In this document: one piece after another, positions 4,629-63,924 of the stretch | How the letters are laid out: each line of letters begins with the position of its first letter | Numbering within the stretch: position 1 is the stretch's first letter | From: a phage | Strand: one strand, 5' to 3' | Assembly (NCBI GenBank): GCA_012178725.1 | Contig: GCA_012178725.1_3030.1 | Length of the DNA: 64,000 nucleotides | Position numbers and translations under genes: made by a program | Notes under the pieces: model-generated | Told to the model about the DNA's origin: nothing | What the model saw: the letters and a program-made list of their open reading frames with translations, nothing else | The model's database searches: none

Positions 4629-5089
4629 TAGTAAAGGTCCTCAGAGTAAAGTTCTTTTTCACTACCACCACGTTCAATACGTACTTGTCCAGCGTAAGTT
4701 GCAATAATCATTGCTTCTTCACGTGTCCAATAATTACTATATTGGTCAATAAATCCTTGGTCATCATCGCAAACTTGCTGAGTAACTAATTGAGGTTTAA
4801 CTACATCTAAAACTTCTGCCATATCTTTAGAATAATGACGAGCACCTGGAATAATAAGAGTTCGTCCATCTTTTAATTTAAAACGATTGGCTGCGCAAAC
4901 AATCCGTCGTTGATACTTTTGGTTTTCATCCCAATATGCAGTCTGCCAACAGATTTCAGGAACTTCTTTCAGAATATCTTCTTCTGTGCATTTATAACCA
5001 TGCGCTTTAAATTTTTCAACAAGACTTTCTGGAGTCTCACGAGATAAAGGAACATTCAGCATTTTTAAACGATTAATAAATGGGTTCAT
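4628..5089 (-). CDS. Hypothetical early protein
   Basis: 153-aa ORF; stop/start overlap with neighbours. Confidence 0.5.
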
Positions 5090-5415
5090 TTAAACCATCC
5101 TTTAATACGCTGCCACAAAGTTTTCTGTTGAGCTTTGTTAACACCAATTGAACGAATAACTGGTTGAGATTCCTGGAATTCTTTATAATCAGCAAGGTAA
5201 ATTTCGTAAGCTGCATCCGTAAATGAACTTATCGCTGCCATAAAATTATTGCGAATACCTACTGGAGCATCTTTACTTTCACGAATAATCATGTATTTAC
5301 CAGTCTTAATCTTTACGATAGTTCCAAGATAAGCTCCATGGTACCAGATGTCCCATCCCTCTTGAGTGGGTTCTGCGCAACGACGAAGTTCATTGACAAT
5401 TTCTAACTTGTTCAT
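5086..5415 (-). CDS. Hypothetical early protein (motA.1-like position)
   Basis: 109-aa ORF immediately downstream of motA. Confidence 0.5.
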
Positions 5416-5425
5416 TATTTATTCC

Positions 5426-6061
5426 TCACAGTTCAGATGCTACAGTGATTACAGCTTCAATGTTTTCTGCCGAGCGTTTAATGTCAAGATACACATTACC
5501 GTTTTTAGCGATTTTACATGACATTCCGATGTCAGTAAATTTCTGAATATGATGTTCCATCATTTTGTATCCAAAAATTCGCATATTTCCATTATTGTTA
5601 ATTTCAAAATTACGAATTCCGTGAGTACGTTTTTCTAAAATAGCGAGATAGTTACTGCGATAAGTTTCAACCTTTTTAAGAACAAATCCATTTTCATCTA
5701 AAAGTTTTAACATGAGGTCTTTATCTTCTTCCATATCAGAAGTAATTTCACGAGCTTTACGAGTTGCTCGTTTTTTCAGTAGTTCCGGAGCATTTTCCTG
5801 TGCATATAAAGTTGCTGCGTTTGAAATAATATCCTGAGCTTCACCTGTAATGATTAATCCATCACCAGATTTCTCCACCAGGCCTTTTTTAATCAATACC
5901 CCAATATTACTATTAACTACTGCGTTACCTAAATCTGGATGTACCTCACGAACTTCTACAGCTGTAATGAAATCTTTCTTAGCAATGGTAATTAAAATCG
6001 CAGCAGTTTTTTCATTCAGAACATCGTTAGAAGCTTTGATGATATAAGTTACTTTAGACAT
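5426..6061 (-). CDS. motA: Middle-transcription activator MotA
   Basis: 211 aa, matches remembered T4 MotA (MSKVTYIIKASNDVLNEKTAAILITIAKKDF...); early promoter cassette upstream. Confidence 0.92.
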   Translation of the reverse strand: MSKVTYIIKASNDVLNEKTAAILITIAKKDFITAVEVREVHPDLGNAVVNSNIGVLIKKGLVEKSGDGLIITGEAQDIISNAATLYAQENAPELLKKRATRKAREITSDMEEDKDLMLKLLDENGFVLKKVETYRSNYLAILEKRTHGIRNFEINNNGNMRIFGYKMMEHHIQKFTDIGMSCKIAKNGNVYLDIKRSAENIEAVITVASEL

Positions 6062-11373: not shown

Positions 11374-13551
11374 TTAGGCCGCAAGGGCCTTCATAGTTTT
11401 AGCGATTTGGGAAACTTCATCATCACTTAAAGAGTTGCGATAACCGATGAAGTCGGAAACAATACGGAATTTCTTGGTAAACTCAGCAACCATTTTATCA
11501 CTGTTTTTTGAAGCATTATTTGATAATACATCAAAAAGATTAGTTACTGTCCAGATGTCATGACCGATGGTATCTTTTCCACCATTAAAATATACACCGC
11601 GCAATGAACTAACTATATTAGCGAGTCGTGTATATTCTTCAGAAACTTCATCTGTACTGAAGTACTTCATCATAAAATCTAGTTCAGGATACTTGATAAT
11701 TTTATCAATATATCGTTGAGCTGAACTTGAATAACCTACGTACTTATCATAATCTACATCATCAAAAGCATCTACATATAAATCACGCAAAGCTTCAAAA
11801 ATACATTGGCACTGACCGAGTTCTTTTACCTTTTTCTGTAAAAGCGGACGAATAACATAAAATTCATTAATGCCAATAAGATTAGCCATACGAATCAAAA
11901 TATTCATAGATGGATGACAAAGAGATGTAGTACCATCCATAGAGAAAATATCAGAACGATGCATATACGCTACATAACCAGTAATTTCATCTGCTTCTGA
12001 TGTGAGCGTAAATAGTTCCTCTTTTTCCCATCGCCCATCTTTAATTTCAAATTTAAATGCTGTAGCAGCTTTAGGACGAGGAGCTTTACTTTTAACTACC
12101 TTTGGAATATAGCTTTTAACTAAAGCTTCAATTTCTGACAAATAATGAATGTTAACTTCATCACTTTCAAACATCGCCATAATATCAGGAAGTAAATCAA
12201 TCTGCGATTCTACTTCCGGATTAATAAACAGAAGACGCTCATTGTGATGAATATTCAAAGTGTTATTAAATTCACTATCATCTAACGCGTGTGCTAATCC
12301 ACGGACAATATTAACACGATTTTTAATATTATCAATAACGATATTAATTTTTGTTGCATTAATACCAAACAGACGATAACTTGATGCAACGGCTGAAGTT
12401 TCATGACTTTGCTTAATGCGCTTCAGTCGAGGGTCAAGATTTACTTCATACACAACTCCTGCATTACATAACTTACTATCAGGTTCAAACATGCTTTGCA
12501 TCTTCTTATATGACAGATTTTTAGTCGTAAATTTGACTGAATTACTAATCATATAATCTCGAGCAGAATATCCCATCTTCATCAATTCACGATATGTGTG
12601 ACGAGGAGATGTAGATTCTTTAAATCGTTTTACATCTTCATTAAATGCTTTCTCACTGAGTTCTTTAACTCGTTCAATAATATTTTTACGAGTGCGATCA
12701 TCCAGTGAAAGAGCCTCGCGAGATGGAGCAATATCAAGTGAACCCATTGGAAACTTAATGTAATTCACTTCATTGCGAATGCTTAGCCAGTTACGGTCTC
12801 TAATAACACCATCGATAGGATAAACAATACCGCCATAGATAGCATACAATCCGCCGCGATCAGGCCAGTATCTTTCTGGATTTACACCGTAATAGTCATC
12901 AAAATCTGGAAAATAATCAATTTCGCGGTCAAGACCATTAATGATAGCCAAATCTTTGAATGGTCGCATGATATAAGAAACTTCATAAGCAAAGTTTCTA
13001 AAGTCTTTTTCTTCAACTGGAACTACAATTTCAATACCAGTTTTATCATCTGGACCCATTTCTTTTACGAATGTAGGTTTAATCTGTGGACCATCACCAT
13101 CCATATAAGCTACATAACCACGAATTTCACCTTTATGATACGAAGTAATACTAAATGTATCAGTATAACTAAACGGAGATTTAGAACCTAAACCAAATCC
13201 GCCAATGAAATCGTTAGATTCAGCCTTAGATGAACTGAAGTATGAATTATACAACCCAGGAGAATTATCATCACCTTGAATATCAAAATCACTCATACCC
13301 GGACCAAAATCTCGACAAACAAATCGTGGGTCTAAACGTCCAGGAATTTGTATGATAAATTTTTCAGGATTTCCATTAAGTGCATGAGCATCAATCATGT
13401 TAGTAATCAATTCACGGACTACTGCGCGAATCTTGTTTGTATACAAATCAGATGATAGAATTTTAAATACTTTAGGATTTGCTGCGATGCTAAATGCTTT
13501 TGATTTAGAACCATTACCAAGAATTGTTTCTTTTTCAGTGGTGATAATCAT
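11374..13551 (-). CDS. rIIA: rIIA protein
   Basis: 725 aa (T4 rIIA size); N-terminal GHKL-ATPase-like motifs ([17 protein letters not shown]). Confidence 0.95.
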
Positions 13552-52368: not shown

Positions 52369-52839
52369 TTAATCATGTTTCCACACCCCATCGGTATTTG
52401 ACCAAAGTCGCTGATTATCTGATCCTCGCCACAGCTTTTTAGTCGGAAGATTTTTCTCATACTTCCCATCAATAATAACATCAACATATTTAAGCATTTC
52501 TAGTTGTTTAATATCTTCAAACTTATATCCTGTCCACAACCAAATGCTTTTATTGGGATAAAGATTTTTTACTGTTTGAACCACAGAGTGAATCACGTCT
52601 CTGTTATCAGGATAAAGAGGGTCACCTCCGGTTATAGTTAATCCTTCTATATAATCATTATTCAAACATTCAATCAATTGTTCTAGTGTTTCACCAGTAA
52701 ATGGAATACCATTTCTAGCATTCCATGTTGATTTATTATAACACCCTTCGCATTTATGCAAACAACCTGTAACGAAAAGAACGACCCTGCATCCAGGGCC
52801 ATTCACAAAATCACAGGGATAAAATCTATCGTAATTCAT
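52369..52839 (-). CDS. nrdG: Anaerobic ribonucleotide reductase activase NrdG (radical SAM)
   Basis: 156 aa; cysteine cluster CDFVNGPGCR...GCLHKCEGCYN. Confidence 0.9.
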   Translation of the reverse strand: MNYDRFYPCDFVNGPGCRVVLFVTGCLHKCEGCYNKSTWNARNGIPFTGETLEQLIECLNNDYIEGLTITGGDPLYPDNRDVIHSVVQTVKNLYPNKSIWLWTGYKFEDIKQLEMLKYVDVIIDGKYEKNLPTKKLWRGSDNQRLWSNTDGVWKHD

Positions 52840-54653
52840 TGGTGTTTAACCCTATGCATGATTTCTTTATTTTTACCGAGATTAAATCCGCGTTCGTTCG
52901 GATTTCCCAAATAACCACATGTTCTTCTTATTGTGTTCATCTTTTTAGGATCAGTTTCTCCACAAATAGAACAAACAAATCCGTTTTCAGTAGGAGTCAT
53001 TTCATGGGTACTTCCACATGTAAAACATTTATCTACTGGCATATTAACACCAAAATAATCTAAATGTTGTGCAGCATAATCCCATACGGCCTCAAGACCC
53101 TTTAAGTTATTTTTCATATCAGGAAGTTCAACATAAGAAATGTGACCACCTGTCGCAATGAAATGATATGGCGCTTCACGAGAAATCTTTTCAAACGGAG
53201 TAATATTTTCTTCTACTGAAACGTGGAAACTGTTAGTGTACCAGCCTTTATCGGTAACATCTTTTACACTTCCATATTTTTCTGTATCAAGTTTACAGAA
53301 GCGATAACAAAGGTTTTCAGCAGGAGTAGAATACAAACTAAAAGCAAACCCAGTTCTTTCAGTCCACTGTTTAAGACGAGCATTCATTTTAGTTAAAATT
53401 TCTCGTCCAATATCACGACCTACAAGAATATTCAATTCGTGAATACCAATGTATCCTAGAGACACTGAACTTCTGCCATTTTTAAATAACTCAATTATAT
53501 CGTCATCAGGTTTAAGACGAACCCCGAATGCACCTTCTTGGTAAAGAATAGGAGCAACAGTTGCTTTAACTCCTTTTAAGGAACTAATTCTACACATCAA
53601 AGCTTCAAAACACAAATCCATTCGCTCATTGAACAATTCGATAAATTTCTGTTCATTGAACTGTGTTCCAATATAAGAATCTAATGCGATACGAGGAAGA
53701 TTCAGTGTTACAACACCAAGATTATTACGTCCATCAAGAATTTCATTACCAGTCGAATCTTTCCATACGCTCAAGAAACTACGGCAACCCATCGGAGAAA
53801 CAGGAACAGATGAACCAGTGATAGCTTTATTGTTCTTAGCTGAAATAATATCAGGATACATCCTTTTGCTTGCGCACTCTAGAGCAAGCTGTTTAATATC
53901 ATAGTTTGGATCGTCTTTATAAAGATTAACACCTTCTTCAACAAACATAACAAGCTTAGGGAAAATAGGAGTTATCCCATCACGACCAAGACCTTTAATA
54001 CGATTTTTCAGAATTGCTTTCTGAATCATTCGTTCAGTCCAGTCAGTTCCCGTACCAAATGTAATTGTTACAAAAGGTGTTTGCCCGTTTGAACTAAAGA
54101 GAGTATTTACTTCATATTCATAAGCTTGGAATGCATCGTATACGTCTTTTTCTGTTTTAGATTGAGCATAATTCAGTGCATCGGCGATTTGCCATTTTTC
54201 TGCATCCTCAATATGTTTTGCATAGGTGCGTTTAACATAAGGAGAAAGTACTTTATCTACATTAGCAAAAGTCGTTCCGCCATATTGATGGGAAGCAACC
54301 TGTGCAGTAATTTGTGCCATAATTGCAGTAGCAACGCCAATTGATTTAGGAGTTTCAATCTGTGCATTACCAAGCTTAAATCCGTTCTCAAGCATTCCTT
54401 TTAAATCTACTAAACAGCAATTAGTAAATGGAAGAGCAGGGGAATAATCAATATCATGGAAATGAATAATTCCGCTTTCATGCGCTTTCATAATAAAAGA
54501 CGGGACCATATTTTTGGCAATGTGTTTAGACACAATACCAGCCATAAGGTCCCGTTGAGTTGGAAAAACACGAGAATCTTTATTAGCATTCTCGTTTAAA
54601 AGGTCTTTATTAGTTTTATGAATCAATCCTTCAATTTCTTTTTCAATTGTCAT
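52836..54653 (-). CDS. nrdD: Anaerobic ribonucleotide reductase NrdD, uninterrupted
   Basis: 605 aa; C-terminal zinc ribbon CFTCGS...CSICG and glycyl-radical region RRTCGYLG; single continuous ORF. Confidence 0.95.
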   Translation of the reverse strand: MTIEKEIEGLIHKTNKDLLNENANKDSRVFPTQRDLMAGIVSKHIAKNMVPSFIMKAHESGIIHFHDIDYSPALPFTNCCLVDLKGMLENGFKLGNAQIETPKSIGVATAIMAQITAQVASHQYGGTTFANVDKVLSPYVKRTYAKHIEDAEKWQIADALNYAQSKTEKDVYDAFQAYEYEVNTLFSSNGQTPFVTITFGTGTDWTERMIQKAILKNRIKGLGRDGITPIFPKLVMFVEEGVNLYKDDPNYDIKQLALECASKRMYPDIISAKNNKAITGSSVPVSPMGCRSFLSVWKDSTGNEILDGRNNLGVVTLNLPRIALDSYIGTQFNEQKFIELFNERMDLCFEALMCRISSLKGVKATVAPILYQEGAFGVRLKPDDDIIELFKNGRSSVSLGYIGIHELNILVGRDIGREILTKMNARLKQWTERTGFAFSLYSTPAENLCYRFCKLDTEKYGSVKDVTDKGWYTNSFHVSVEENITPFEKISREAPYHFIATGGHISYVELPDMKNNLKGLEAVWDYAAQHLDYFGVNMPVDKCFTCGSTHEMTPTENGFVCSICGETDPKKMNTIRRTCGYLGNPNERGFNLGKNKEIMHRVKHQ

Positions 54654-56230: not shown

Positions 56231-56240
56231 TTTTCACCAA

Positions 56241-56450
56241 TTAATTTCGCAATTTATTAAGTTCTTCATAATCAATCCAGGATTCTAATCCTGATGGCAA
56301 ATCAGATTCAATTTCCCAAAGAAGTTCTTCAATTTTATGAAGACGATCTAGTTCTTCAGCAGGAATAGTAACCATTGACGGAGCTCTTGCTACATTAATA
56401 TCGTAAATCATATTTACCCCAGTTTGACCATACAATCGCCGTATTTCCAC
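56241..56450 (-). CDS. Hypothetical protein
   Basis: 69-aa ORF. Confidence 0.4.
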   Translation of the reverse strand: MEIRRLYGQTGVNMIYDINVARAPSMVTIPAEELDRLHKIEELLWEIESDLPSGLESWIDYEELNKLRN

Positions 56451-56629
56451 TTAGAAATAGACTTTTCACCGTTAGAATAATAAACTTCGAGTTTAGCACG
56501 ATTATTTTTAATTTGAATAACCTTGGCTGTCATCAAAGTTCCATACCCATAATAAACTGCAACTTCATCACCTACATATACAGCGCTTCCGCGGTAATCG
56601 TGAATATAGTCAGTTCCTTCGAGCATCAT
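56414..56629 (-). CDS. Hypothetical protein
   Basis: 71-aa ORF; ATGA overlap with nrdC. Confidence 0.4.
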   Translation of the reverse strand: MMLEGTDYIHDYRGSAVYVGDEVAVYYGYGTLMTAKVIQIKNNRAKLEVYYSNGEKSISKWKYGDCMVKLG

Positions 56630-56889
56630 TTAAAATATTCTCGCAGTTGGTCAAATCCACCAATATGACTTCCATCAGGAGCAAATACCTGAGGCATTGT
56701 CAAGCCGATTTGAGTATCACGACCTAGTTTAGTCAGAAGCTCAGCGATTTTCTCATCATCAAAAACACCTTTTTCCGGCATAATGTTGATAAATTCAAAC
56801 GGCTGTTTCTTCACGGTCAAAAGACGTTTTGCATTATCGCAATACACACATTTATGAATGTTGCTATCATAACCATATACTTTAAACAT
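56626..56889 (-). CDS. nrdC: Glutaredoxin/thioredoxin NrdC
   Basis: 87 aa; CVYC active site; matches remembered T4 NrdC start MFKVYGYDSNIHKCVYCDNAKRLL. Confidence 0.9.
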   Translation of the reverse strand: MFKVYGYDSNIHKCVYCDNAKRLLTVKKQPFEFINIMPEKGVFDDEKIAELLTKLGRDTQIGLTMPQVFAPDGSHIGGFDQLREYFK

Positions 56890-56890
56890 A

Positions 56891-57133
56891 TTATTCCTTA
56901 ATTCCTAGTACTTGTTTAAAAGTCTCGTCGTAATCAAGACTTTGGCCCGTTTGTTCTTTATGTTTGTATATAATATCACTTACTTCTGATAGCATATTTT
57001 TATATGAACGAGTTAAAGCAGATTTAAGCACGCTGTATCTATCAGGAAATTTACCATGTTCATTATAATAAGCTATTGCTAATTCACGGACTGCCTTTTC
57101 AGCAGCTTCCATATATTCTTTACGCTTGGTCAT
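56891..57133 (-). CDS. Hypothetical protein (nrdC.1-like)
   Basis: 80-aa ORF. Confidence 0.5.
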
Positions 57134-57135
57134 TT

Positions 57136-57525
57136 TTAATCCAAAATATTATTAGGCATTGGTTGAACACTCACAAGTTCTTTAAAGAACTCAGTAGAGT
57201 CAGGCAATTTAACCATTTCCGGAGCATGCTTACTGAATTTATGTTTACATTGACGGCATTTATATTCAAGCTCTGGTTTACGCCAGTTAATCAATTGAAC
57301 TTGTTCAGTACCGCATTCAGGGCAATTAGGAACGTTTTTAGAAGCTCTTTCACGTCGTTCAACCATAGCCATAATAGCATCCCATGCTGGAGGTTTAAAA
57401 TCTAAATCGTCGCAGCCGTGAATCTTTCCACGCATTTCCATATCATCTTCCTCACCAGCCATAATAATTTTAATTAAACTGGAATTACTTGAAGCTGCAA
57501 TGTCTTCTAATAAACGCTTTTTCAT
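57136..57525 (-). CDS. Zinc-ribbon protein
   Basis: 129 aa; CPECGTEQ...CRQCKH four-cysteine ribbon. Confidence 0.5.
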
Positions 57526-58451
57526 TTCAATACCTCAATAGCATTACGTAAACCATTTGCTTTTGCATTAAGAGCTTTTAACAATTTGGTGTGTTCTGCA
57601 ATTTGGGCTTCAACTTCAATCAAACGGGCATTGAGATATTCGCGTTCTTCACTCAGATTATCAACCTTTTCTACTTTAGGCTCTTTTACAACTGTCTTAT
57701 ATGTATTAGGGTTCTTCAGTTTAATTAGAATGCGTGAACTGTATAACATTGAACCATTATCTTCGGTTTCGTCATACATTTCCACTACGTCCATAATTTT
57801 TAACATCATGCGGAGTTTATAAGACAACGAACAAATAGTTTTGTTGTGCTTATTAATTTCTTTAGCTGTCATGGTGCCAAGATTACGTGAGTAATAATAA
57901 GGAACCTGGATATTAATTAATACTGATGAACCACCTGGCTTGTGTGTTACTTCATCAGCAATAACCCAGTCCTTAACATGAACTGTATTTGTACGGTCAT
58001 CGCCCGCGGTAAATAGTTTGCGAGCATGCTTAAAAAGCATATTCACTTGGTCATTGAATTGACAAGCAAATTTATCAGCAAATTTAGTTTCAGGAATGGT
58101 AGATAACCAATCAGCCAAATGAGTCTTTTTAACATCGTTAACAATAGTAAATTCAACCAAATCGGTTATAGATGTCTCAGATTTAATAAAGCTCGGCTTC
58201 ATAAAGTTTTTAATGTTATCGTGAGCTACAGTAGAAGATAACATACGAGAACGTTTAAACCATTCAAGCAAATTACCTAACGAATGAGAATAAGCGTTTT
58301 GAGTATCTTTACAGATATGATTTTCCTGGCCAACATATTGAAGGAAATCACGAAGAATATTATTGATTACTGCTCTGTGTCCGATCTGATAATTACGATG
58401 TTTAGTAATAAGACTGTCAAAATAATCAATATAATGTTTACGAGTTTTCAT
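57522..58451 (-). CDS. Member A of tandem paralog family with C-terminal coiled coil
   Basis: 309 aa; shared motifs with next three ORFs (see findings). Confidence 0.55.
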   Translation of the reverse strand: MKTRKHYIDYFDSLITKHRNYQIGHRAVINNILRDFLQYVGQENHICKDTQNAYSHSLGNLLEWFKRSRMLSSTVAHDNIKNFMKPSFIKSETSITDLVEFTIVNDVKKTHLADWLSTIPETKFADKFACQFNDQVNMLFKHARKLFTAGDDRTNTVHVKDWVIADEVTHKPGGSSVLINIQVPYYYSRNLGTMTAKEINKHNKTICSLSYKLRMMLKIMDVVEMYDETEDNGSMLYSSRILIKLKNPNTYKTVVKEPKVEKVDNLSEEREYLNARLIEVEAQIAEHTKLLKALNAKANGLRNAIEVLK

Positions 58452-58505
58452 GTTCTTCTCACTTGGTTAATGATTTATACTCCGAGCCATCCTTGGCTTT
58501 AAATT

Positions 58506-59537
58506 TTACTTAATTAACTGTAAAGCCTGTTCTAAACGATCAAGACGATTAACAGATTCTTCCCAAATCCTTTTAGCCTGCTCATATTCTTTCTGCGCTT
58601 TATTAGAAATTTCTAGAACTTCTTTATAAGCTTTTTCTAATGCAATAACTTCTGGACGAATTTCTATCGGTTCAGGCGAATCGTCAAGATTATCCATTAG
58701 TTCCTCAAGGGTAGTTTCTTCTTTAGGAGTATTCACAATTTCATCACATTTTTGTTGGTAAATTTCTTTATCAGTAGGTGAATAAGCACATTTCACTTCA
58801 CGAAGACTAATTACAATTTTATATCCTTCCCAGCCGCATATATTCTTAAAAGGATATGTATGAATATTTTCTACTGTTTCCATACAAAGTAATGCGGTCT
58901 CTAATTGACGAGTTATAGTGCTAGCAATTGAGAAAAATTTATTAATATTCTTTTGGTTAGTTTCTGGTGTAAAAAATCCATAATTCACAAAAATAGATAC
59001 TTTATTTTTATCAAGTTCATATTCTTTTATGATAATCATGTCAGAAGCCAAAGGATGAATTTGACGATAATCGCCATAACATAATTTAGAAGCTGATTTT
59101 AGAATTTGCTTCTTAAAAAGTCTGAAATTACTAATCCAACGACGAGTAAAAATATTCTCAGGGTCTTCTTTGACATTAAGATGATAAGAATTAACATCAC
59201 CGAACCAATTATATCCTACTACATCTTTGGTTCGTTTAATTTCTTTCCCAAAATTACCAAGAATATCCCGATTAACCAAATATGAAAGAAGACGAGACTC
59301 TTTAAAAGTTTTTTTGATAACATCTTTATCTACACGGCTAGAAATTTTACGAATTTCATGAATAAATTTAGTAGAAGAAACAATACTTGCATCAACACTA
59401 TTGAGCCATTGATTGATAATAGAAAGAACGATATTTTGACCAAACATCGGTATAGCTTTATCATCAATAACGCTGTTGAACGATTTAATATATTCGTTGC
59501 GAGTCATATTAATTTCCTCAGTAGAAAGTAAGAACAT
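58506..59537 (-). CDS. Member B of tandem paralog family with C-terminal coiled coil
   Basis: 343 aa; shared motifs. Confidence 0.55.
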   Translation of the reverse strand: MFLLSTEEINMTRNEYIKSFNSVIDDKAIPMFGQNIVLSIINQWLNSVDASIVSSTKFIHEIRKISSRVDKDVIKKTFKESRLLSYLVNRDILGNFGKEIKRTKDVVGYNWFGDVNSYHLNVKEDPENIFTRRWISNFRLFKKQILKSASKLCYGDYRQIHPLASDMIIIKEYELDKNKVSIFVNYGFFTPETNQKNINKFFSIASTITRQLETALLCMETVENIHTYPFKNICGWEGYKIVISLREVKCAYSPTDKEIYQQKCDEIVNTPKEETTLEELMDNLDDSPEPIEIRPEVIALEKAYKEVLEISNKAQKEYEQAKRIWEESVNRLDRLEQALQLIK

Positions 59538-59564
59538 TATACCACATCCTTGTGGCGAAGTAAA

Positions 59565-60584
59565 CTAGTTTAGTGCATTTAGTGCGTTGTTCAGTTTAGA
59601 ACGTTGCTTCGTGAGATTTTTGACTTTTTCTTGTGCTTTTTCTAGCATCTTTTCAGCTTCTAACACTTCATTGGTCGCTTTAACGAGTTCATCATCTACT
59701 GCCTTAAGAGACTTCTCAATCGCATCCGCGTGCCATTTTTCAACAGGTTTAAGACTCGGATTTTCAATAGGAAGAAAATTCACTTTATTGAATTTCCATG
59801 CATCTTTATTGCCTGAACTATACATCCAAAATTTAGAATCGTTTGATGAGTAATTAGATAAATTTAAGTTATCTTGCACTTCTTGCTTTTTCTCTTGCGG
59901 GACTTCGTCCTTTCTCAAAAAATCGTATTTAAATGAAACGACCATATCAAGTTCATATGTTGTTGTATGTTCCCAATTTCGCTCAAAACGAGGTAAAATC
60001 TTAGAATGAACAGCGGCAACAACATCCATATACTTAAATGCTTCTGTCAACTGCGATTTAAGGCATTCGCAAATTGAAAGAGAATTTTTTGTATTAGGTT
60101 TAAAGCTAATTCGTGCAGTTCTATTATTTTCTTTTAATGGTCTTACTTCCATCTGAAGAGTATAACCATCAAATTTCAAATTCTTTAAGTTAATATCAGA
60201 GCCTTTTAATCGACTAGCAGTAGACAAAATTTGCTTTAATTGTTTACGGAATAGAGCAATAAATCTCCATTCAAGACGATAATGATTTGGATTGAAAAAT
60301 CCAGATGATAAATCGACCTTACTTTGACCAACGCCTTGAACAAATAGAGGATTTTTATAATCAATAGTTTTACAGAAATCGGTGAGCTGCTCACGAGCAG
60401 TCATTTGTGTAATATACCCCGCTTTACTAAAATGACGTAACCATTCACTGCTATTCATATATTTAAAGTGAATATCACGATTAACTTTATCAGGGTCTAA
60501 ATTATTTTGGCACAAAAATGTCATAACATCACGAGTATAGCTGGCATTACGAATCATATCTTCAATTTGAGAACGAGTTTTCAT
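59565..60584 (-). CDS. Member C of tandem paralog family with C-terminal coiled coil
   Basis: 339 aa; shared motifs. Confidence 0.55.
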   Translation of the reverse strand: MKTRSQIEDMIRNASYTRDVMTFLCQNNLDPDKVNRDIHFKYMNSSEWLRHFSKAGYITQMTAREQLTDFCKTIDYKNPLFVQGVGQSKVDLSSGFFNPNHYRLEWRFIALFRKQLKQILSTASRLKGSDINLKNLKFDGYTLQMEVRPLKENNRTARISFKPNTKNSLSICECLKSQLTEAFKYMDVVAAVHSKILPRFERNWEHTTTYELDMVVSFKYDFLRKDEVPQEKKQEVQDNLNLSNYSSNDSKFWMYSSGNKDAWKFNKVNFLPIENPSLKPVEKWHADAIEKSLKAVDDELVKATNEVLEAEKMLEKAQEKVKNLTKQRSKLNNALNALN

Positions 60585-60592
60585 GGTGTTCC

Positions 60593-61495
60593 TTAAGATT
60601 TAAGTAAATCAACAATTTTAATTAACTTTTCACGCTCAGATTTAGCTTTACTACTCAATCCAGATAGTCTAAAAATTTCATCATCATATTGTTGAATAGA
60701 AATATTCAGCTCTTCAATCTGTTTATTAAAATAATCAATTTGTTCAGAATGTTTTTCGTTACTACGAACTGGTACAGGTTTTGTAGGCAATTTAGTTGAA
60801 CTGGATTCATCCGGGCGATAAATTAAAATACAACTTGAACCAATAGGGCATTTTGCACCAGATGAATATTCTAATGTTCCAGCTTCTTTTAAAACTTCAA
60901 AAGCTAAACAGAGATGATGCCCCATATTAACATAATCTGTAGAGTGAGCTCTGATGTAATAATCATCGCCGCGAATACTAAATTTAAAGCATTTAAGGTC
61001 TTCTGTATTATTGGTCTTAAAAATCATTTGTTTATCTAGACCTTTAGCTAATCGAGCGCCTAATGCTAATAATCGTCGTTGATTTTCCCACAAATCTGCG
61101 ATCATTTGGTCAAATGATAATTTCGGCATTAGTCGACCATAAAGGTCATATCCTTTATTATAATTGCGAAGGATTTCACTCGCGTTAATACGAGACAATG
61201 CTCCAATTTTATTAAGGGCTTTCATAATGCGATTAGATAAACCCATTCCAGACCCATTTGTTCGTTGTAAATGTTTTTCTAATCCAAATCCAATATCAAC
61301 TTTAAATTTATCTAAAATTTCAGCATGAACATCTCTGTCAATAACATTCAAATCCAAAGTTGGGTTAAATCTATGAAAAAATTTATCTGGCTCTCCACGA
61401 CGAAGTACAGTCCATTCATTTAATTTTTTATTAACTAAAGATTTAATTACTGCATTGACATTATTAATTACTACTGACATATTTTTCTCACTCAA
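60593..61495 (-). CDS. Member D of tandem paralog family with C-terminal coiled coil
   Basis: 300 aa; shared motifs. Confidence 0.5.
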   Translation of the reverse strand: MSEKNMSVVINNVNAVIKSLVNKKLNEWTVLRRGEPDKFFHRFNPTLDLNVIDRDVHAEILDKFKVDIGFGLEKHLQRTNGSGMGLSNRIMKALNKIGALSRINASEILRNYNKGYDLYGRLMPKLSFDQMIADLWENQRRLLALGARLAKGLDKQMIFKTNNTEDLKCFKFSIRGDDYYIRAHSTDYVNMGHHLCLAFEVLKEAGTLEYSSGAKCPIGSSCILIYRPDESSSTKLPTKPVPVRSNEKHSEQIDYFNKQIEELNISIQQYDDEIFRLSGLSSKAKSEREKLIKIVDLLKS

Positions 61496-62943: not shown

Positions 62944-63924
62944 TTATTTCAGAAGAGTAACCTCAGCAATTTCTTCCCAACCATTTTTGTCGGTCATAAT
63001 AAAGTCAGCAAGATAAAGAGCAGTACGCAGTGAAACATTGCGTAAACGATTAACATTGACTTTCATCCATGATAATGCTTTATAAGTTTCTTCATCAGAA
63101 AGACCGCGCTTTTGCATCATGTCAGTTGAAAGAATAACATCTTCAACCCTGACCATAATTTCTTCATTAGTGTGAACACCCAAATCCAAATAAACTGAGC
63201 GGGACACTAATGCTTGTAAATGTGGAGCAAGTTTAGTACCACGGTCTAATTCGCGGTCAATGTCAACGTTTGTGATAAAAACAATCGTTCCTTTAAATTC
63301 AAACTCACGCTCAATGCCTTTTTCTTCTAAGTAAGAAGATGCGGTGCTCCAGCAGACTTTACGGGTCTCTCCAGTGTCCAGAGCAGCTTTCAGAAGATTA
63401 AGAATGTCCATATCAGAGAAAACATCCACATCATCAATCAAAAGGACAGAATTCTCTTCACGATTATTCCAAAGCTGCTCATAAAGACCAATACCAGAGA
63501 TTTTACCATTAATGCTTTTATATTCAATGTATCCAATATCATTTGCTTTATTTAAAGCTTTATCTAAAGAATACGTTTTACCAATACCTGCTGCACCAGA
63601 GATAATTAATGAACGAATGTTTCCGTTAATAATACCATTCGTCATCATTCCCATAACATTAAATCTTTTATTAATGCGGGTTTTCATATCTTCATACGAT
63701 TCTTTAACTTCTTCAACTTTTACACCATCATATGAAATGTCTGATTTGTAAACCCAAACACCGCGACGTTTACCGTCAATTTCAACAAAAACTTTACCAT
63801 CTCCTTGTGCATCTACCGGAGCATTATCTGGGAACCATTCGCCTAAGAGCTCAAAAGTTCCAGAGATTTCTTTACCGAAGTAGATACCCTTATTGATAGT
63901 TACAGTTTTCATTTTATTCTCCAA
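62944..63924 (-). CDS. AAA-type ATPase (nrdC.10-like)
   Basis: 326 aa; Walker A GAAGIGKT, Walker B LLIDDVD; early promoter upstream. Confidence 0.6.
   Translation of the reverse strand: MENKMKTVTINKGIYFGKEISGTFELLGEWFPDNAPVDAQGDGKVFVEIDGKRRGVWVYKSDISYDGVKVEEVKESYEDMKTRINKRFNVMGMMTNGIINGNIRSLIISGAAGIGKTYSLDKALNKANDIGYIEYKSINGKISGIGLYEQLWNNREENSVLLIDDVDVFSDMDILNLLKAALDTGETRKVCWSTASSYLEEKGIEREFEFKGTIVFITNVDIDRELDRGTKLAPHLQALVSRSVYLDLGVHTNEEIMVRVEDVILSTDMMQKRGLSDEETYKALSWMKVNVNRLRNVSLRTALYLADFIMTDKNGWEEIAEVTLLK

Follow-up and report, generated by a model that had tools for sequence, protein, structure and literature searches.

Phage T4 is the reference lytic phage, but for roughly half of its genes no function is known. 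Four adjoining T4 genes annotated as hypothetical, nrdC.3, nrdC.4, nrdC.5 and nrdC.6, are analyzed here as they occur in a phage window of 64,000 nucleotides (contig GCA_012178725.1_3030.1 of NCBI GenBank assembly GCA_012178725.1; positions are those of this whole stretch). The four open reading frames (ORFs) are considered, with high confidence, to be diverged tandem paralogs of one ancestral gene, all of them homologous and nrdC.6 the most diverged. The overall explanation that we find best, and hold to be reasonably probable, is that these tandem paralogs are early, non-enzymatic inhibitors of host immune proteins.

The starting point for this explanation is nrdC.5. A deletion clone of T4 was found to fail on E. 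coli ECOR17 owing to the defence sirtuin Dsr1, an NADase, and expression of the early gene nrdC.5 restores its infection of Dsr1-carrying cells (Srikant et al. 2022, PMC9391042). The Dsr1 section of that paper offers no mechanism and does not speak of tests on the paralogs. EcDsr1 bears an Avs7-type sensor that is triggered by a phage major capsid protein (2026 study, PMC13581612). A related case is DSAD1, from an SPbeta-group phage, which inhibits DSR2 by binding the sensor region and competing with the structural-protein trigger. T4 also carries the accessory anti-defence genes tifA, dmd, adfA, ipI and ipIII, described in PMC9391042 as non-essential, tending to cluster and extending the host range by neutralising particular defences.

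The window is genomic DNA of a Tequatrovirus (T4-like) phage. A 5-kb region of it has matches in 742 phage records, 464 of them with at least 80% query cover, and nearly all come from coliphages and their relatives. Gene order and strand are identical to those of the T4 reference (nrdD, 49, ..., nrdC, nrdC.1, nrdC.2, nrdC.3–nrdC.6, nrdC.7 to nrdC.11). An earlier note on this DNA, made from the letters alone, had described four adjoining minus-strand ORFs of 309, 343, 339 and 300 amino acids and proposed a comparison with the nrdC-distal genes of T4. The coordinates and lengths are borne out, and T4 annotation and synteny identify the ORFs as follows; the letters A to D stand for them in the comparisons below.

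57522 to 58451, minus strand: nrdC.3 (A), 309 amino acids, promoter-distal member of the array; ORF, phrog_1435 (E 1.6e-116)
58506 to 59537, minus strand: nrdC.4 (B), 343 amino acids as listed, 333 from a probable start at 59507; ORF, phrog_1435 from residue 11 (E 4.5e-168)
59565 to 60584, minus strand: nrdC.5 (C), 339 amino acids, orthologue of the T4 anti-Dsr1 gene; Pfam DUF7235 (PF23882), 418.6 bits
60593 to 61495, minus strand: nrdC.6 (D), 300 amino acids as listed, 295 from a probable start at 61480, most diverged member; phrog_2257 (E 1.9e-153)

Identity to the T4 protein is 60% for nrdC.3, which is syntenic with the T4 gene, 98% for nrdC.4 and 92% for nrdC.5, which sits between nrdC.4 and nrdC.6 as in T4. 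The DUF7235 match of nrdC.5 (cut-off 30) covers residues 1–339, the full length, and the other three ORFs have no match to this model.

Homology among nrdC.3 to nrdC.6

Pfam and PHROGs keep these genes in three separate families, which are treated as unrelated and have no function assigned: nrdC.3 and nrdC.4 belong to phrog_1435/PF26897, nrdC.5 to phrog_2351/DUF7235 (PF23882) and nrdC.6 to phrog_2257/PF26899. The sole link found by pairwise blastp is that between nrdC.3 and nrdC.4 (E 4.7e-7), and first, shallow family profiles (effective number of sequences about 2) joined nrdC.4 to nrdC.5 at E 1e-3 and gave no link for nrdC.6. The profiles were deepened with the divergent arrays of Gaprivervirus VR20, Dhakavirus IME281, phages 212 and fDHCT2 and an RB69/JK45-type contig. 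In hhalign, these deepened profiles link nrdC.3 with nrdC.4 at 98% probability (E 1.7e-13), and the combined nrdC.3/nrdC.4 profile with nrdC.5 at 81% (E 1.3e-5, 254 colinear columns).

Three further groups entered the comparisons: the single-copy homologues of Klebsiella phages (Jiaodavirus, group J), those of Enterobacter phages (Karamvirus, group K) and those of Acinetobacter phages (group N). Group J is linked by hhalign to A at 95% (2e-8), to B at 88% (3e-6) and to C at 95% (2.5e-8). With the coiled-coil tails cut off, the links among A, B, C and J hold at 90–98%, and the J–K link stands at 75%. The earlier note had named compositional bias as what might alone explain the shared motifs; reversed-profile nulls score at most 22.6, against 40–97 for the real links. 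A combined A/B/C profile searched against 1.84 billion cluster representatives gave 18 matches, among them two further bridges, P0232 (matched by the A, B, C and J models) and P0239 (matched by the B, C, J and K models). For A, J, K and N, a search of viral contigs for related loci yielded hardly any useful relatives, or none.

The inclusion of nrdC.6 depends on intermediates. Several points weigh against it: compared directly with the A, B, C or J profiles, nrdC.6 gives no significant match (probability 0.6–13%, E 0.002–0.1); the link between D and K is moderate once the tails are removed (33%, E 4e-4); and the multiple sequence alignment behind the nrdC.5 model mixed the A, B and C families, which could bias that model toward a common fold. 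No D-family protein was present among the 18 matches of the A/B/C profile. The ~280-amino-acid tblastn matches of nrdC.5 in VR20-type phages had been considered as NrdC.6 proteins, and so as a direct C–D link; they were ruled out, being separate genes.

In favour of inclusion, a chain runs to nrdC.6 through group K (J–K 84%, 8e-6; K–D 91%, 1.3e-6), and the merged D+K profile matches the merged profile of A, B, C, J and the bridges at 97.3% (E 1.6e-11); the match spans 251 colinear columns, the core motifs among them, and the reversed null scores 19. At E 1e-9, the D-family hidden Markov model matches PG7_082, which occupies the nrdC.3/4 slot. The motif L..A.(K/R)L..GD and the hydrophobic helix downstream of it, both quoted in the earlier note, fall in the same columns of the MAFFT and hhalign alignments, and they are in register in the B–C, C–D and B–D alignments alike. 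Moreover, nrdC.6 adjoins the other members in at least four phage lineages.

The structural models, made for nrdC.5 and nrdC.6, are compatible with this. The AlphaFold model of nrdC.6 (predicted local distance difference test score, pLDDT, 79; predicted template modelling score 0.65) has full-length matches in BFVD, with probability 1.00, E 3e-7 to 3e-4 and only 12–18% identity, to uncharacterised proteins of 300–375 amino acids from distant T4-like phages of Enterobacter, Pectobacterium, Acinetobacter, Klebsiella, Erwinia and Yersinia. In the loci of three of these lineages (Klebsiella, Enterobacter, Acinetobacter), the relatives are single-copy genes in the nrdC.3/nrdC.4 slot, adjoining nrdC.2 or nrdC. 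The nrdC.5 model (pLDDT 71) has the same order of secondary-structure elements as that of nrdC.6, and the two models share full-length BFVD matches at probability 1.00: Mineola A0A2Z4QAR2, Cronus A0A2S1GM98 and fHe-Yen9-01 A0A1V0DXL6. The template modelling scores of these two modelled members to the three shared matches are just 0.3–0.5. Group N has a structural link to the nrdC.6 model; its sequence link is weak (C–N, E 0.002), and it was therefore kept out of the merged profiles.

The paralogy proposed from the letters alone is thus supported by different routes: A and B are joined directly, C through group J, and D solely through intermediates, namely group K, the merged profiles and the converging fold-search matches. 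These results support a single NrdC.3–6 superfamily that joins PF26897, DUF7235 and PF26899, or PHROGs 1435, 2351 and 2257. The genes and the nrdC.5 phenotype were already known; what is new is the union of three families into one paralogous superfamily, a predicted fold and predictions for three T4 genes.

Architecture and turnover of the array

The four proteins have a common predicted layout, in which a helical N-terminal region is followed by a β-β-α-β-β unit, then by a linker that is disordered and, at the C terminus, by a heptad helix. The N-terminal region holds an 'LS..A...L..F' helix and a helix that ends in 'A.(K/R)L..GD', and the helix of the β-β-α-β-β unit is the hydrophobic helix of the earlier note. 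This helix of nrdC.5 aligns with the equivalent helices of nrdC.3, nrdC.4 and nrdC.6. The elements located in the window are listed below.

57525 to 57665, minus strand: C-terminal heptad tail of nrdC.3, residues 263–309; 3.5-residue periodicity, p=0.006; a/d positions VLRLLVIHLLALIL
58509 to 58685, minus strand: C-terminal heptad tail of nrdC.4, residues 285–343 of the 343-residue form; periodicity p=0.001
59568 to 59738, minus strand: C-terminal heptad tail of nrdC.5, residues 283–339; periodicity p<0.0005; modelled helix
59931 to 60158, minus strand: predicted β-β-α-β-β unit of nrdC.5, residues 143–218; in the model, strands 143–149 and 155–161, helix 168–184, strands 189–199 and 209–218
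60596 to 60754, minus strand: C-terminal heptad tail of nrdC.6, residues 248–300 of the 300-residue form; periodicity p=0.009; modelled hairpin
60818 to 60988, minus strand: predicted β-β-α-β-β unit of nrdC.6, residues 165–221 of the 295-residue form; in the model, strands 165–170 and 173–178, helix 186–199, strands 204–209 and 217–221

The heptad-like tails noted earlier are substantiated in four of four proteins by family-averaged hydrophobic periodicity compared with shuffles, with a best period of 3.4–3.5. This test replaced a cruder, window-based heptad score, by which the tails of nrdC.5 and nrdC.6 only were significant. The tails of nrdC.4 and nrdC.5 align with a gap of exactly seven residues. 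In the models, the nrdC.5 tail is one continuous helix of 56 residues (283–338), with pLDDT 81–92 over residues 291–339 and a mean of 66 for 281–290, and the nrdC.6 tail is a helical hairpin (245–271 and 276–294). The acidic or proline-rich linkers that had also been noted are predicted to be disordered, with pLDDT <50 at residues 224–280 of nrdC.5 and 227–241 of nrdC.6.

Across 36 diverse members, the columns conserved at 75% or more are nearly all hydrophobic (buried), and the other positions vary. The conserved columns that are not hydrophobic comprise one S/T, three K/R (one of them the C-terminal residue), one N/Q, one Ala and one Pro, and no conserved acidic, His or Cys constellation was found. 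Nor did the four proteins show an enzyme or defence-family match above threshold in Pfam, NCBIfam or PADLOC. The NCBIfam and PADLOC matches to a tyrosine-recombinase N-terminal region (nrdC.3) and a BrxC coiled-coil segment (nrdC.4) were discarded as sub-threshold noise, as was a Pfam PHL match of nrdC.3 below its cut-off. Neither a phmmer search of PDB with nrdC.5 nor a fold search of PDB with the models found a solved structure with the predicted fold. Such conservation is in keeping with a scaffold on which variable surfaces are displayed, not with an enzyme.

As a separate observation, the β-β-α-β-β unit of the nrdC.5 model has weak Foldseek matches (E 0.01–0.05, probability up to 0.98) to tail-completion, tail-terminator and head-tail connector proteins of ~130 amino acids. 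The likeness of the model to tail proteins may be accidental or a remote structural similarity. Since defence sirtuins sense virion proteins it is of interest, and it is recorded as a lead only, which enters none of the arguments here.

The family is confined to T4-like phages. Three or four copies occur in Tequatrovirus, Gaprivervirus, Dhakavirus and RB69/JK45-type phages, and a single copy occupies the same slot in Jiaodavirus, Karamvirus and Acinetobacter phages; the RB16 region examined holds none. Gaprivervirus VR20, Dhakavirus IME281 and phages 212 and fDHCT2 carry nrdC.6, an nrdC.5-like gene and nrdC.4, without nrdC.3, and the RB69/JK45-type contig carries D-like, C-like and A-like genes, without nrdC.4. 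Since several genera have three or four copies, the amplification is old, and the array is older than the split of the Tequatrovirus, Gaprivervirus, Dhakavirus and RB69/JK45-type phages. The earlier description of a gene family amplified and diversified in place therefore stands as regards tandem paralogy, but the duplication is ancient and common to several Tevenvirinae genera, not recent.

Within Tequatrovirus, most comparisons of nrdC.3, nrdC.4 and nrdC.5 show several-fold more amino-acid change than most neighbours. With the divergent T4-type nrdC.3 allele set aside, nonsynonymous divergence (dN) is 0.02–0.045 in most of these comparisons and 0.007–0.013 in the closest pairs, and it is mostly at most 0.01 in neighbour genes, with exceptions up to 0.04 in nrdD and nrdC.7. 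The ratio of nonsynonymous to synonymous divergence (dN/dS) is 0.1–0.37 for the three genes, compared with mostly 0.1 or less for neighbours.

The most variable segment, positions 57100–58300 (nrdC.3 and the adjoining part of nrdC.2), has 54–72% nucleotide identity to T4 (54–69% for nrdC.3 itself) in a background of 93–99%, with sharp boundaries; judged from the sequence, nrdC.3 with part of nrdC.2 forms an allelic cassette. By tblastn, nrdC.3 falls into three allele classes in the phage collection, at 90% or more, 74–78% and about 60%. In Jiaodavirus, the alleles of sister phages (L022–L025) are 38–46% identical to the single-copy homologue, gp080 of Klebsiella phage Mineola (L012:13967–14947), and the NrdC.11 proteins of the same phages are all about 70% identical to one VR20 query.

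Members can also be lost or recombined, as indicated by P0056, a metagenomic protein from a T4-like contig of 167 kb. This protein, which corresponds to window positions 57522–60152, is a natural in-frame fusion of NrdC.5 residues 145–271 to NrdC.3 residues ~136–309, joined at a 'KVN(F/M)L' microhomology, with nrdC.4 deleted. In the T4 reference itself (NC_000866, about 12008–12909), nrdC.6 is frameshifted near codon 263: residues 1–263 of the window protein match one frame and residues 264–300 another, at 97%. The annotated T4 protein of 275 amino acids therefore lacks the last tail helix.

A proposed counter-defence role and its alternatives

Given its 92% identity to T4 NrdC.5, the third ORF is likely to share the anti-Dsr1 activity. 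The counter-defence role suggested by the earlier note is thus supported for nrdC.5, whose T4 orthologue overcomes Dsr1 (PMC9391042), and extends by inference only to nrdC.3, nrdC.4 and nrdC.6, which their homology to nrdC.5 makes candidate immune-evasion genes.

Because of the architecture, the lack of catalytic signatures and the DSAD1–DSR2 precedent, the most likely mechanism for NrdC.5 would be, by analogy, the blocking of a sensor. Each paralog would be an early-expressed, non-enzymatic inhibitor whose variable head makes contact with a host immune protein, and the coiled-coil tail would allow dimers or higher oligomers to form, with more avidity for oligomeric defence proteins. Early in infection, NrdC.5 would occupy or lock the Dsr1 sensor ahead of the late capsid protein, which could then no longer activate the NADase of the bound Dsr1. 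The products of nrdC.3, nrdC.4 and nrdC.6 may act on different defence proteins, or on other variants of Dsr1 or of the sensor. A more ambitious version, offered tentatively, sees the array as a diversifying battery of sensor blockers, in which one scaffold with its coiled-coil tail carries exchangeable, fast-evolving heads and each paralog or allele is tuned to another host immune receptor; the candidate targets would be different members of a large family of defence proteins with an Avs7/Dsr1-type capsid-sensing domain. If this were true, nrdC.3, nrdC.4 and nrdC.6 would be three undiscovered anti-defence proteins, with a fold without a solved relative.

Several observations weigh against a function in immune inhibition for the whole array. 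The searchable literature holds functional evidence for nrdC.5 only and no phenotype for nrdC.3, nrdC.4 or nrdC.6, and it reports no binding, oligomerisation or inhibition by these proteins; no other family names and no follow-up work on nrdC.5 were found there. None of the four genes reaches a gene-wide dN/dS of 1, and within Tequatrovirus nrdC.6 evolves no faster than its neighbours (dN/dS 0.02–0.14). Furthermore, the isoelectric points (pI) of nrdC.3, nrdC.4, nrdC.5 and nrdC.6 are 9.1, 6.9, 9.3 and 9.2, and the three basic proteins (nrdC.3, nrdC.5 and nrdC.6), with a net charge of +8 to +11, would also fit nucleic-acid binding.

Much of this would be expected if only nrdC.5 served counter-defence and its three homologues had another early role, such as basic nucleic-acid-binding or host-takeover proteins, an explanation that we regard as rather doubtful. 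The charge of the basic proteins, the ordinary purifying selection on nrdC.6, the missing phenotypes in the searchable literature and the frameshift of nrdC.6 in the T4 reference, which has no known consequence, are all compatible with it. However, nrdC.5 is itself both basic and anti-defence, and charge therefore does not discriminate. Neither Pfam nor NCBIfam gives an above-threshold match to a DNA- or RNA-binding domain, and nrdC.3 behaves as an exchangeable allelic cassette and the single-copy Jiaodavirus gene is hypervariable, both typical of host-interaction genes.

It is unlikely that NrdC.5 and its relatives act indirectly or enzymatically, by modifying Dsr1, through NAD+ metabolism or by masking the capsid trigger, with no stoichiometric block of the sensor. 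No mechanism of Dsr1 evasion by nrdC.5 is reported, other phage counters to NAD+ depletion are enzymatic, such as the NARP pathways, and in most members the conserved helix is followed by a short polar motif, G-x-D-(K/R). Against such activity, the conserved columns are nearly all hydrophobic and include no acidic, His or Cys constellation across the superfamily, no enzyme family (Pfam, NCBIfam) or enzyme-like fold (PDB) was matched, and a flexible linker combined with a coiled-coil tail is what scaffolding or binding proteins typically have.

Very improbable is the last alternative, that nrdC.6 is no true paralog and shares the layout of globular head, linker and coiled coil by convergence: its separate place in Pfam and PHROGs, the non-significant direct comparisons, the D–K link weakened by tail removal and its absence from the A/B/C search would suit it, but the merged profiles, the PG7_082 match, the shared fold matches and element order, the motifs in register and the conserved adjacency all argue for common descent.

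If nrdC.3, nrdC.4 and nrdC.6 are related to the anti-Dsr1 gene nrdC.5, three specific and cheaply testable anti-defence candidates are at hand, and databases are given a reason for merging three families of unknown function into one clan. The predicted modular inhibitor, in which a variable head is combined with a tail for oligomerisation, could account for the way in which T4-like phages keep pace with varying immune sensors of their hosts. The allelic cassettes together with the natural fusions and deletions suggest that the locus is partly responsible for differences in host range between T4-like phages used in therapy. The unification is incremental but useful and testable, and describes no new kind of system.

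Neighbouring genes and known systems

The start codons of two genes deserve comment. Close homologues of nrdC.4 belong to PF26897 and mostly have 333 amino acids; since most orthologues have this length and PHROG 1435 aligns from residue 11, the true start is probably the 11th codon (59507). All of 105 nrdC.6 homologues carry PF26899 and most have 295–296 amino acids, for which reason its true start is probably the 6th codon (61480), giving 295 amino acids. A predicted promoter lies between nrdC.5 and nrdC.4.

59536 to 59564, minus strand: sigma-70-like promoter match, TTTACT-17-TATAAT with an upstream TG; consensus scan, 10 of 12 matches

From this promoter, transcription would begin downstream of the longer nrdC.4 start, which fits the 333-residue form; promoter-like sites in the region are in total no more numerous than in shuffles, and the match is weak alone.

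Many GenBank phage records label every gene from nrdC.1 to nrdC.11 'thioredoxin'. This label is an artefact of name propagation from the nrdC.x gene names: only nrdC (56626–56889) is thioredoxin-like, and the four ORFs have no thioredoxin-domain match in Pfam or NCBIfam. The flanking genes pointed out in the earlier note fit their description there. The zinc-ribbon protein is nrdC.2, with CxxC pairs and sub-threshold zinc-ribbon matches; the protein with two transmembrane segments is nrdC.7, annotated in T4 as a predicted membrane protein; and the Walker A/B ATPase is nrdC.10 (62944–63924, next to nrdC.7–nrdC.9), with both Walker motifs and sub-threshold AAA and STAND-NTPase matches. The nrdC.10 gene is highly conserved (dN/dS at most 0.13), and Jiaodavirus, Karamvirus and Acinetobacter phages have it as well. 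Upstream in the T4 order, nrdD (52836–54653) is uninterrupted, with 605 amino acids, and the T4 group I intron with I-TevII (T4 record 4816–5850) is absent. Positions 56237–56625, from the gene 49.2 homologue to nrdC, have no blastn match to the T4 49.3 region and hold two small ORFs of 69 and 71 amino acids.

Among known systems, the acidic DNA-mimic anti-restriction proteins (Ocr, ArdA, Arn) were considered and rejected; as three of the four proteins are basic, an Ocr/Arn-type DNA mimic is excluded. The accessory genes tifA, dmd, adfA, ipI and ipIII are unrelated in sequence to the array, and none of them is described as a four-member tandem array with a common coiled-coil tail. DSAD1 resembles NrdC.5 as a phage protein directed against a defence-associated sirtuin, and by analogy it serves as the mechanistic model proposed for NrdC.5 and Dsr1. 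It differs in targeting another sirtuin, whose trigger is the tail tube protein, whereas that of Dsr1 is the capsid protein, and no sequence or fold relationship of NrdC.5 to DSAD1 was detected. By family models and close homologues, nrdC.3, nrdC.4 and nrdC.6 are clear members of PF26897 and PF26899 and of PHROGs 1435 and 2257. Closest of all is T4 NrdC.5 (DUF7235, PF23882): the third ORF is its orthologue, with 92% identity, the same array position and a full-length DUF7235 match, nothing at the tested level separates the two, and this allele is accordingly predicted, from its sequence, to be active against Dsr1.

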